The notes beneath the pieces were generated by a model, which was not told the origin of the DNA, did no database searches, and worked only from the letters and a program-made list of their open reading frames with translations. A stretch of 26,109 bases of DNA, from positions 1 through 26,109 of the forward strand of contig CAZGJX010000056.1 of assembly GCA_964525635.1 (NCBI GenBank), read 5' to 3'. Within the stretch, counting starts at the first letter, position 1; each line of letters opens with the position of its first letter. Made by a program: the position numbers and the translations under genes. Positions 16,483-17,922 of the stretch are shown here, in pieces. The DNA comes from an uncultured archaeon (GTDB lineage Archaea > Asgardarchaeota > Lokiarchaeia > Sigyniarchaeales > SOKP01).

Positions 16483-16740
16483 CCTTACAACTATTTATAA
16501 AAATTTATTTATTCTTATAATAATTACCAATTTCTATTCTAATTATCAATTTCATCTCAATAACAATTTTTCACTTATTCATACTATTATATAATTTTTT
16601 CATACTACAAATCTATCATTATATTAAACGTTATATTCATATTGATTTCGGAAATTTTCATATTATAGTTAATAATCCAAGGATTTAAAAATCTATTAGA
16701 GTATTTAATTAATAACAAATTATATTTATGGAGTATAAAA

Positions 16741-16860
16741 ATGAAAATTGTAAAAAAGGAAAAAACAACAAGTACTGCTTGTAAGTGTGGCGGAGGCTGC
16801 ATCTCAAACAGTTGTAAGTGCGGCGGTGGCTGCATTTGCAAATGTGGTGGCGGCTGCTAA
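16741..16860 (+). CDS. 39-aa Cys/Gly-repeat peptide MKIVKKEKTTSTACKCGGGCISNSCKCGGGCICKCGGGC (candidate RiPP precursor or metallothionein-like peptide)
   Basis: Manual translation. GGAG SD at 16730-16733, T-rich tract after the stop, and three identical peptide repeats encoded with synonymous codon differences. Confidence 0.85.
   Translation: MKIVKKEKTTSTACKCGGGCISNSCKCGGGCICKCGGGC
16780..16857 (+). repeat. Three imperfect 21-bp repeats, each encoding CKCGGGC
   Basis: TGTAAGTGTGGCGGAGGCTGC (16780), TGTAAGTGCGGCGGTGGCTGC (16813), TGCAAATGTGGTGGCGGCTGC (16837). All differences are at third codon positions. Confidence 0.9.
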
Positions 16861-16975
16861 AAACCTTAACTTTAAATATTTTTTTTAATATATTTTTTTT
16901 GTTTATTTCAACAATAAAGCCATTTTATTCCTATGAATATTTTAGCTTATTTCATATTTTATGTTAATAATTGAT

Positions 16976-17221
16976 TCATTTATTGCTCAGAATACTTTGA
17001 ATTTTAATCATTCTTATTTTCAAATTCTCTCTAATGATCTTTAATTGTTCATCTAAGATTTTATTAATTACTTTATTTATTGTTGGAAAAATAATGCCAA
17101 GATGCAGTTTTTTTAGATTATTAGAGATTTTGTTTGAGATCTTCGCAAAAATATAATCTAAATCTTTAATTTGAGTGGAAAATAAATCAACTATTTCTGT
17201 ATTTTTGTTTGACTCTTCTAT
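16976..17221 (-). CDS. Small helical hypothetical protein (~81 aa, probable ATA start)
   Basis: Part of ORF 16976..17251. AGGTG lies 6 nt before an in-frame ATA at 17221. Amphipathic helical pattern. Confidence 0.5.
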   Translation of the reverse strand: MEESNKNTEIVDLFSTQIKDLDYIFAKISNKISNNLKKLHLGIIFPTINKVINKILDEQLKIIRENLKIRMIKIQSILSNK

Positions 17222-17321
17222 TTTAAACACCTTTAAAGTTAAAAATATCAAAATTCCTAAATCTATAAGAAAACTGAAAAAATACAGAAAAACTCTGAAT
17301 AAAGAAAAAGGTGTTGAGAAG

Positions 17322-17465
17322 ATTCAAATTATTAGTCGTGAAGATTCCATTAAAGAATTAAATGAAAAAAATATAAATTTAATATCTAAATTTCCAAAAT
17401 TAAAACCTGGTTCATTAAAAGAAGATACATTAGTAGATGATGAAACTAAAATCGTAGAGAAATAA
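17322..17465 (+). CDS. Small hypothetical protein (~47 aa, probable ATT start)
   Basis: 3' part of ORF 17175..17465. AGGTG (17309-17313) precedes an in-frame ATT at 17322, and this start removes the overlap with the divergent ORF. Confidence 0.4.
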   Translation: MQIISREDSIKELNEKNINLISKFPKLKPGSLKEDTLVDDETKIVEK

Positions 17466-17642
17466 TTTAATTAATACTCTTTTTTTATTAATAAAATCAA
17501 TTAATAACATCTGATTTTAAATATAATTCTTGATATAATGTGCTGGTGAAAAATAGATATAAAAAAAAAAGAGATAATAAGTTAAATACTAATATTATTG
17601 CCAAGACGGCTAGAAATTGATATTTTTAAATGGTTTATTCTA

Positions 17643-17828
17643 TTATTGGACAACTACTGATTGTAATTCTATTTGAATGAGATAATCCATATCAGTATCA
17701 TCATAATAAACTGATTTATTTAAATCATTTCCTTGGACATTACTCTTCCAACCGCTTCCATGATCCCATAAAATCACAGCATACTAAGCAGCAGGATAGT
17801 TAAAAACTTCCAAAAATTCCAATAATAA
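17643..17828 (-). pseudogene. Fragment of a clostripain-family (peptidase C11) gene
   Basis: Manual translation LLLEFLEVFNYPAA*YAVILWDHGSGWKSNVQGNDLNKSVYYDDTDMDYLIQIELQSVVVQ* matches the C11 motif YPA-x-x-Y-x-x-I-L-W-x-H-G-x-G-W and the following DD..dyL...EL segment. Internal TAG at 17784-17786. Confidence 0.8.
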
Positions 17829-17832
17829 TCAT

Positions 17833-17872
17833 TAGACAAAATTATTGTCTATAATTACCAAATTATTGTCTT
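17833..17872. promoter_or_regulatory. Palindrome plus a phased second half-site, upstream of a TATA-like box
   Basis: TAGACAA-n5-TTGTCTA (17833-17851). AAATTATTGTCT is repeated at 17839 and 17860 (21-bp period). TTATATA at 17879-17885; next ATG at 17923. Confidence 0.5.
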
Positions 17873-17922
17873 ATTAACTTATATATCACGAAAATCTAAT
17901 ATAATTAAAAATTTAAACAAAA

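Follow-up and report, generated by a model that had tools for sequence, protein, structure and literature searches.

What is encoded by a 39-amino acid ORF with three exact CKCGGGC repeats, located on a contig from an Asgard archaeon, a member of the closest archaeal relatives of eukaryotes? The window analyzed here, 26,109 nucleotides in length, is a complete 26.1-kb contig (C56) of a 4.45-Mb genome of ~25% G+C. A first-pass annotation, made from the sequence of the window, had proposed that the peptide is the precursor of a peptide made on ribosomes and modified after translation (RiPP), possibly acted on by an enzyme 3.6 kb downstream that combines a RiPP recognition element (RRE) with a radical S-adenosylmethionine (SAM) domain, or that it is a metallothionein-like peptide. 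The analysis described here favors, at a probability of roughly 0.6, a RiPP precursor whose cysteines would be modified by this radical SAM enzyme, probably to thioethers, yielding a metal-handling peptide that would be expressed together with metal-uptake genes. The features on which the argument depends are listed below; F1 and F3 denote the proposed maturase and a small protein encoded directly after it.

16579-85, 16600-06, 16637-43 and 16658-64, plus strand: four TCATAYT boxes, spaced 21/37/21 nt, upstream of the peptide promoter
16684-16691, plus strand: TATA-like box, TTTAAAAA, about 50 nt 5' of the ATG
16730-16733, plus strand: Shine-Dalgarno-like GGAG, 7 nt 5' of the ATG
16741-16860, plus strand: open reading frame (ORF) of the peptide, from the ATG at 16741 to the TAA ending at 16860, 39 aa, MKIVKKEKTTSTACKCGGGCISNSCKCGGGCICKCGGGC
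16741-16779, plus strand: leader-like part of the peptide, MKIVKKEKTTSTA, 13 aa, Lys-rich
16780-16860, plus strand: core of the peptide, three CKCGGGC units with spacers ISNS and I, ending in a C-terminal Cys and then TAA
16780-16800, 16813-16833 and 16837-16857, plus strand: the three CKCGGGC units, 21 nt each
16879-16886 and 16893-16900, plus strand: oligo-T terminator-like tract, two runs of 8 T after the stop
20424-21698, plus strand: F1, RRE-radical SAM-SPASM enzyme, proposed maturase, 424 aa
21743-21988, plus strand: F3, 81-aa three-Cys protein (C26-H-K-C29 ... C45), directly after F1

The elements described in the first-pass annotation, namely the 39-aa peptide, its Shine-Dalgarno sequence, the three CKCGGGC repeats with silent differences and the T-rich tract, were all found as stated, and the antisense shadow that it had noted in the ORF track corresponds to a 78-aa frame at 16605-16841, the sole other ORF across the site. 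The full peptide has the layout MKIVKKEKTTSTA-CKCGGGC-ISNS-CKCGGGC-I-CKCGGGC. Pairwise, the units differ at 2, 4 and 5 nucleotide positions, and all 11 of these differences are synonymous. A degenerate CKCGGGC pattern occurs at the peptide locus only in the 4.45-Mb genome, and the reversed control gave 0 matches. Comparison with the closest congener revealed 13 synonymous differences and 1 non-synonymous difference in the peptide gene, and for the 19 orthologous copies compared, the pooled ratio of non-synonymous to synonymous variation (pN/pS) was 0.22, with most variation at third codon positions. A chance ORF, or a mere antisense shadow, was ruled out by this pattern of synonymous substitution, which together with the low pN/pS indicates a protein-coding gene under purifying selection. 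That the peptide ORF is a real gene, far beyond what chance would provide at 25% G+C, is regarded as close to certain.

Homologues were sought with a CxCGGGC pattern, a looser CKCGxxC...CKCG pattern, inspection of the regions upstream of F1 orthologues and a hidden Markov model (HMM) of the peptide. The phylum sample comprised 400 genomes (assigned G-numbers, with the window genome as G000), of which 135 genomes in 13 genera belong to family f1, the window's own family (Promethearchaeota, Lokiarchaeia-type). All are metagenome-assembled genomes with a completeness of 52-100%, such that absences are soft; the co-occurrence counts reported below include relatives, which are not independent, and no P-value is attached to them. 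The search for small CxCGGGC ORFs in Asgard genomes, suggested in the first-pass annotation, did recover homologues, and these co-occurred with a radical SAM-SPASM gene. Across the 400 genomes, multi-unit copies were confined to family f1, where 21 intact peptides with 1-3 CKCGxxC units were identified in 20 genomes: 20 multi-unit peptides in 19 genomes and one single-unit peptide, MKIVKKVKRASAACKCGDSC, in G167. The looser pattern contributed members in which the variable pair is SA, DS, GD, ST/SG/SS or GDA. The family f1 consensus is MKIVKKEKxTSAA-(CKCGxxC-spacer)n, in which M1, K6, K8 and the C-K-C-G...C residues of the first two units are invariant and K5 is nearly so; every family peptide ends in Cys-stop. 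A profile search of 5.8 billion protein clusters identified only 6 clusters containing the peptide, and the two with a source name were both listed as 'hypothetical protein [Promethearchaeota archaeon]'. So small a number of clusters implies that annotation usually misses the peptide gene.

In four Asgard families besides that of the window, single-unit peptides of 18-21 aa were observed, consisting of the same type of leader and one C-terminal unit. The mini-ORFs encoding MKIKKVPKKETKTACKCGSDC, MKITKVSKKETKAACKCSSDC and MKITRVSKKKKTAACACKKCC are each divergent from an F1-like gene at a distance of about 200 nt, and that encoding MKIVKKEKRSSTACKCGASC lies 1.9 kb from an F1-like gene; the HMM located unlinked copies in four more genomes (MKVTKVTKRKTAACKCGQSC twice, MKIKKVPKKETKTACKCGSDC and MKKIRKKTATACKCGASC). 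The occurrence of single-unit forms in these families identifies CKCGxxC as the functional unit, the modification of which must fit within seven residues. As judged from this distribution, the ancestral form is apparently a Lys-rich leader of ~13 aa followed by one C-terminal CKCGxxC, a unit that was then multiplied in the window's family. One of the related loci carries the record label 'Candidatus Helarchaeota'. A further contig, G124:C180 (DATKTP010000180.1, G+C 0.34), is labelled as the bacterial 'Candidatus Deferrimicrobium sp.', yet it is syntenic with the Helarchaeota contig SUPS01000145.1 and its genome is placed in the window's archaeal class, and so the record name or the binning looks wrong.

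An unusual copy was found in the window's genus (G160:C162; L013:425-583, minus strand), in which the peptide gene is broken by two in-frame TAA codons. Two near-identical in-frame inserts of 30 nt, each with a TAA, are positioned exactly between CK and CGGGC of both units, such that the copy reads ...SSCK-IIRELLF-stop-CV-CGGGC-ISSN-CK-IKGELLF-stop-CV-CGGGC-stop. The two CVCGGGC stretches that follow the TAA codons differ at three positions, all synonymous. This copy is a candidate pseudogene, a case of stop read-through or an assembly oddity.

F1 belongs to the RRE-radical SAM-SPASM class of peptide maturases, with the build of SuiB, CteB and SkfB. Pfam assigned Radical_SAM (8.4e-26) together with Fer4_12. 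The CxxxCxxC motif (C121/C125/C128) is invariant in 20 orthologues, as are seven C-terminal cysteines (C331, C347, C383, C388, C394, C398 and C417) in a SPASM-type spacing of C331-x15-C347 (with G342-x4-C347), C383-x4-C388-x5-C394-x3-C398 and C417; the mean column identity of the orthologues is 64%. A profile of the orthologues matched SkfB (5e-19) and YydG, and matched TigE (8VPO), SuiB and CteB over nearly the full length, from residue 25 or 33 to 400-419, with the N-terminal domain included. The AlphaFold2 (AF2) model of F1 had a mean predicted local distance difference test score (pLDDT) of 89 and a predicted template-modeling score of 0.89. Residues 1-82 form four strands and three helices (pLDDT about 90) in an RRE-like arrangement, and the best Foldseek matches, SuiB, CteB, SkfB and TigE, are all RiPP maturases. 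SPASM enzymes and peptide maturases made up most of the NCBIfam matches (AhbD/NirJ, ScmE, DynA, WgkB, PapB at residues 111-408, StsB, and AlbA at residues 33-402); the best of these reached 60-101 bits where the cut-offs are 180-850, and all were far below. F1 is not assigned to any of the four families examined for membership: ACGX (TIGR04340, 1.3e-19; 70.6 bits against 400), StsB (NF045574, 6e-20; 71.5 against 625), PapB (NF047865; 73.1 against 340) and AlbA (NF012164; 68.8 against 850). Neither TIGR04463 (the CrpC family) nor the maturase of the SCIFF pair TIGR03973/TIGR03974 was among the 25 best NCBIfam matches listed for F1. The locus thus combines a precursor built of leader and repeated core with a radical SAM core, a seven-Cys SPASM domain and a fused RRE, the features by which an RRE-radical SAM-SPASM RiPP is recognized.

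The genomic arrangement ties the peptide to this enzyme. In G158, G159, G150 and G278, the F1 orthologue comes immediately after the peptide gene, with the 81-aa F3 next in line; a single ORF intervenes between peptide and F1 in G173, and several in G165 and in the window. The gap between the two genes is 75-773 nt in 11 loci, where they are co-oriented or divergent (in the genus g10 genomes G166, G167 and G168 the peptide is divergent from F1), with larger gaps, occupied by inserted genes, of 3.0 kb in G161, 3.6 kb in the window and 6.0 kb in G165. The earlier guess that the enzyme 3.6 kb downstream is the partner of the peptide is therefore backed by 13 other family f1 loci in which the peptide gene lies by an F1 orthologue.

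Co-inheritance points in the same direction. F3 is present in 24 of the 135 family f1 genomes and in 8 of the 13 genera, patchily within four of them, and is absent from all 96 genomes that make up the family's two largest genera; wherever the contig permits, F1 directly precedes it. The two-unit peptide pattern matched 18 genomes, all within the 24 that are F3-positive, with 0 of 382 others matched and 0 control hits. When G161, G167 and the disrupted copy in G160 are counted, a peptide gene is present in all but three of the 24 F3-positive genomes, giving 21. The three are G154, where the contig ends at the start of F1; G276, in which F3 is decayed and F1 is missing; and G275, where none was found. 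Every family f1 genome with the peptide also carries the F1 gene and the F3 gene. The peptide HMM, which recovered peptides in F3-positive genomes that the pattern had missed, had no match at E<=1 when run against five complete family f1 genomes that lack F3. Such joint patchy presence within four genera suggests inheritance and loss as a unit.

The association extends well beyond the window's family. A narrower F3 alignment search had recovered two related loci; with a broader F3 profile, F3-like genes were located in 12 further genomes from six other Asgard families. At eight such loci, an F1-like gene (33-39% identical, full length) stands directly before one or two F3-like copies, and four of these F1-like genes have a mini-ORF peptide beside them. 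The combination of synteny and co-occurrence, and the recurrence of the trio in other Asgard families, supports the RiPP-precursor reading put forward in the first-pass annotation, and the peptide, F1 and F3 very probably form one functional unit.

Within family f1, F3 is more strongly conserved than F1 (mean column identity of 81%, above the 64% of F1). Invariant in the family are C26, H27, C29, C45, H5 and an acidic-aromatic loop, QEYWE.EYEC; distant relatives retain only the three Cys, F31 and a few other residues. F3 had no relative in Pfam, NCBIfam or the PDB, and a protein-atlas search returned its own Promethearchaeota cluster only. The AF2 model (pLDDT 67) comprises three helices, and the cysteines sit where a loop of low confidence begins and ends. 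F3 may serve as a co-maturase, a carrier, a metal site or an alternative substrate. A search of 1.84 billion representatives with the F3 profile gave 19 matches, some with two or three tandem domains (in the group P0010, P0013-P0015, P0018 and P0025). One F3-like match is from the cultured Archaeoglobus sulfaticallidus (Asulf_02007). Another, P0022, weakly resembles the C terminus of the TIGR04084 radical SAM/SPASM family (E 0.024), a likeness hinting that F3 could be a split-off enzyme tail.

The expression signals of the peptide gene are conserved as well. In nearly all orthologous loci, a TTTAAA(A/T)A element lies about 50 nt 5' of the ATG, and the stop is followed at a distance of 15-40 nt by a T7-T10 run; GGAG is not kept in all orthologues. 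Judging from the TATA box and the T-run, the peptide gene is transcribed on its own, with termination ahead of F1. Separate transcription units with a terminator before the enzyme are common for RiPP precursors. Nearly all family peptide genes listed are preceded, upstream of the TATA box, by two to four TCATAYT boxes in direct orientation, most of them at 21-nt spacing; the box sequence in other Asgard families is (A/G)TATTAC. The box resembles the TCATAC half-site of Escherichia coli NikR, and the window genome has two NikR_C-domain genes (G000:C45:16938-17093 and C29:31189-31347). A single box plus TATA, tried as a probe for the regulon, proved too unspecific in this AT-rich genome.

Phased box pairs occur at 8 places in the window genome, two of them at the peptide gene; the reversed motif gave 3, and about 4 would be expected. 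A three-box array lies directly before cbiM (Pfam CbiM, 1.4e-54), from which cbiQ and an ABC ATPase gene, presumably cbiO, are divergent. Phased boxes before cbiM were also observed in G158, G159, G155, G169 and G173, from three genera, making six genomes with that of the window; in two genomes of genus g10, cbiM is only 5-7 kb from the cassette (G169, C6:449.5-457 kb; G173, C4:200-210 kb). In the window genome, a phased pair precedes an operon for a Peripla_BP_2/FecCD/ABC metal-chelate importer (G000:C31:19379-22501, L146), and a box array precedes thi4, encoding thiazole synthase (G000:C217:78-1077, L147); both are possible further members of the same regulon. The shared boxes suggest that the peptide gene belongs to a regulon of the metal-uptake type. 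Because importers carry the boxes too, the gene is expected to be active under scarcity of Ni/Co or a related metal. Expression under scarcity would fit a chaperone, a buffer or a metallophore better than a detoxifying metallothionein. Beside the window genome's cbiM, a weak radical-SAM-like ORF (G000:C28:15323-16270; L145:4824-5771) lies directly after cbiM and a 98-aa ORF, the latter a candidate cbiN with no Pfam match.

These observations can be brought together in the following model. The leader would dock on the N-terminal RRE of F1, the radical SAM and SPASM domains of which would then modify the cysteines of each CKCGxxC unit. S-C thioether links would be the most probable: sactionines, as in StsA, if the invariant Gly were the acceptor, or ranthionines, as in CteA, PapA and CrpA, if it were the invariant Lys. 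F3 would act as a required partner. Made when the metal-uptake regulon is on, the product would bind Ni/Co or a related metal and act as its chaperone, store or metallophore. The parts of this model differ in strength. That the peptide is the substrate of F1 is more likely than not; a metal-related role is slightly favored; and the assignment of the modification as thioethers, drawn by analogy with other maturases, is tentative. A more specific version, in which the CKCGxxC peptide would be a radical SAM-tailored nickelophore or Ni/Co chaperone within a NikR-type regulon that includes CbiMNQO and the metal-chelate ABC importer, with F3 as carrier or co-maturase, is speculative and judged less likely than not.

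Several points weigh against the model. The peptide is unlinked from F1-F3 in G273, G277, G156, G174, G125 and G307, and no protease or exporter is conserved in the cassette among the loci compared. At 13 aa, the leader is short for an RRE ligand. Each unit offers three Cys and only two invariant non-Cys residues, which leaves the predicted pattern of acceptors ambiguous. F3, with its conserved Cys and many Glu, could itself be the substrate of F1. The Pfam models PqqD and SPASM do not score on the isolated ends of F1, and the RRE and SPASM calls therefore rest on structure, profile alignment and Cys spacing. Across the window genome, box pairs exceed expectation only about 2-fold and three-box clusters show no enrichment relative to control motifs, such that the argument for the regulon rests on the phased pairs and on the conservation of boxes ahead of the peptide gene and cbiM.

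In a rival reading, the peptide would be an unmodified, metallothionein-like or metallochaperone peptide that binds metal through free thiols, merely co-regulated and co-located with F1-F3, the true substrate of F1 being F3 or something else. The CxC/CxxxC spacing and composition are metallothionein-like, with weak matches to Pfam Metallothio_2 and PEC models; the promoter has boxes of the metal-uptake type; and F1 and F3 are always adjacent, with the peptide sometimes unlinked. In addition, the invariant Cys of F3 by an acidic aromatic loop recall the protein substrates QhpC and CrpA (PMC13692751). Against this, the metallothionein models reach E values of 0.08-0.13 only, the boxes shared with importers point to metal shortage rather than detoxification, and RRE substrates typically combine, as this peptide does, an invariant leader with a core. 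Strict co-occurrence across a divergence so deep that the F1 proteins are 33-39% identical is also hard to account for unless there is a direct functional tie. An unmodified peptide is considered unlikely. The alternative raised in the first-pass annotation, of a metallothionein-like peptide, fails as a statement of family membership and survives as a tie to metal, in the boxes held in common with importers.

In another reading, the peptide would be processed like the precursors of PQQ, mycofactocin or methanobactin to release a small cofactor or metallophore: each CKCGxxC unit would be modified, excised and used or exported as a chelator of low molecular weight or a redox cofactor, so that more units would give more yield. 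The presence of 1-3 units, the dispensable spacers and a unit that is always terminal resemble a multi-core precursor, the Peripla_BP_2/FecCD/ABC metal-chelate importer carries the same boxes, and a membrane serine hydrolase is encoded after the cassette in the window's genus. This hydrolase is limited to that one genus, the cleavage is purely hypothetical, and the lack of a protease or exporter conserved across the system counts against excision; this reading is judged improbable, a little more so than that of an unmodified peptide. Last, a regulatory upstream or leader peptide that senses amino acid or tRNA supply, or an untranslated non-coding element, might be suspected from a very short ORF that gene callers missed and that has a terminator right after it, and is for practical purposes excluded by the predominance of synonymous changes with Lys and Cys codons varying freely at third positions, by the occurrence of the gene on either strand and at unlinked sites, which precludes action in cis on F1, and by the absence of any Cys or Gly metabolism gene downstream in the window.

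The reading of the peptide as an F1-modified RiPP precursor can be set against systems already described. In searches of known families, the peptide matched no NCBIfam family at E<=1, SCIFF included, and the window peptide matched 0 Pfam families at E<=0.01. Membership of the metallothioneins was rejected, with best E values of 0.13 (6 of 18 members) and 0.076 (1 member) against Pfam models that include Metallothio_2 and Metallothio_PEC. On these comparisons the peptide is no member of the metallothionein, SCIFF, ACGX or Crp family. Haft's ACGX-repeat system has a short leader and a variable number of tiny Cys-containing repeats beside a radical SAM/SPASM enzyme. The leader and repeats next to such an enzyme are shared with the present system, whereas the score of F1 is far below the ACGX cut-off and the repeat and the taxa differ. 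The clostridial SCIFF (CteA)/CteB system (PDB 5WGG/5WHY) likewise pairs a short Cys-rich precursor (~40-45 aa) with one RRE-radical SAM-SPASM maturase in a minimal cassette without protease or transporter. Structural and profile comparisons place CteB with the best matches of F1, yet the two are only 19-20% identical, and the present system differs in the repeated C-K-C-G-x-x-C heptad that ends the peptide, the obligate F3, the archaeal host and the metal-uptake-type promoter.

Sactipeptides of the StsA/StsB/StsC type (and BlaA/BlaB) share a CxC-type core with Gly (PMC10288494). StsB links the Cys sulfur of a CxCxC peptide to the Gly α-carbon, forming a sactionine (PMC10288494), which makes Cys-Gly chemistry a plausible fate for the invariant Gly of CKCGxxC. 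By contrast with the CxCxC...GxGxG hairpin of the StsA core, the unit here has 7 residues with three Cys and one invariant Gly, and the RRE is fused in F1 where the Sts system has the separate protein StsC. Ranthionines are formed on Cys-rich repeats by CteB, by PapB and by the archaeal CrpC. CrpA/CrpB/CrpC of Methanococcus voltae is an archaeal RRE-radical SAM-SPASM system for which ranthionine links were shown experimentally, and the Crp proteins are reported to be upregulated on pyrite (PMC13692751, 2026). An archaeal enzyme, a neighbouring product with repeated Cys motifs and a link to metal or sulfur supply are thus common to both systems. CrpA is large, with ten 17-residue repeats behind a leader-like part of 47 residues, compared with a peptide of 18-44 aa here, and no F3-like partner is described for it (PMC13692751).

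The present peptide resembles metallothioneins, methanobactin and bufferins in its Cys-rich, aromatic-free CxC motifs and, here, has a promoter tied to metal-uptake genes. Methanobactins are RiPPs whose modified Cys chelate copper. Bufferins are likewise RiPPs whose modified Cys chelate copper (PMC12452194). The enzymes of bufferins and methanobactin are MNIO/MbnBC, in contrast to the radical SAM/SPASM enzyme here. Literature searches on Asgard RiPPs and radical SAM enzymes, Asgard metallothioneins, CKCG with radical SAM and nickel metallophore RiPPs found no description of this system. These comparisons mark it as a probable RRE-radical SAM-SPASM RiPP system, set apart by a new type of precursor, an additional obligate partner and a predicted regulon for metal.

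Experimental knowledge of peptide natural products and metal trafficking in Asgard archaea is close to nil. The system is compact and easily cloned, consisting of a ~20-40-aa peptide, one radical SAM enzyme and one 81-aa protein, and its key component is systematically missed by gene callers, the 18-21-aa forms being below typical length cut-offs for gene calling. Were the link to metal true, a radical SAM member would join the small set of metal-chelating RiPPs that includes methanobactins and bufferins; were the nickelophore or chaperone version also true, it would represent a new class of RiPP and provide a new path by which Ni/Co is delivered to hydrogenases and carbon monoxide dehydrogenase/acetyl-CoA synthase.

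The surroundings of the cassette vary between genomes. Between peptide and F1 (16900-20420), the window has about 2.9 kb of extra DNA compared with its congeners G158 and G159, in which the gaps are 454 and 696 nt. This insert and the region downstream of F3 contain the following.

17175-17465 and 17923-18612: ORFs in the insert, no family match
18890-19375: SRPBCC ORF in the insert
19791-19913 and 20168-20290: two copies of a 40-aa peptide ending in Gly-Tyr, just upstream of F1, the second copy being part of the extra DNA
22086-23825, plus strand: membrane alpha/beta-hydrolase (S9/S33-like, from Pfam), after F3 in the window's genus only
23841-24737, plus strand: DUF1848 protein (radical SAM-like, from Pfam), after F3 in the window's genus and in G165, from one other genus

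The hydrolase and the DUF1848 protein are possibly lineage-specific accessories and not core parts of the system. The neighbours of the unlinked peptide copies, among them genes for FAD amine-oxidase-like, cytochrome b561-like and winged helix-turn-helix proteins, gave no consistent association. The two Gly-Tyr peptides were considered as a conserved substrate of F1 and rejected, their homologues being confined to the window's genus.

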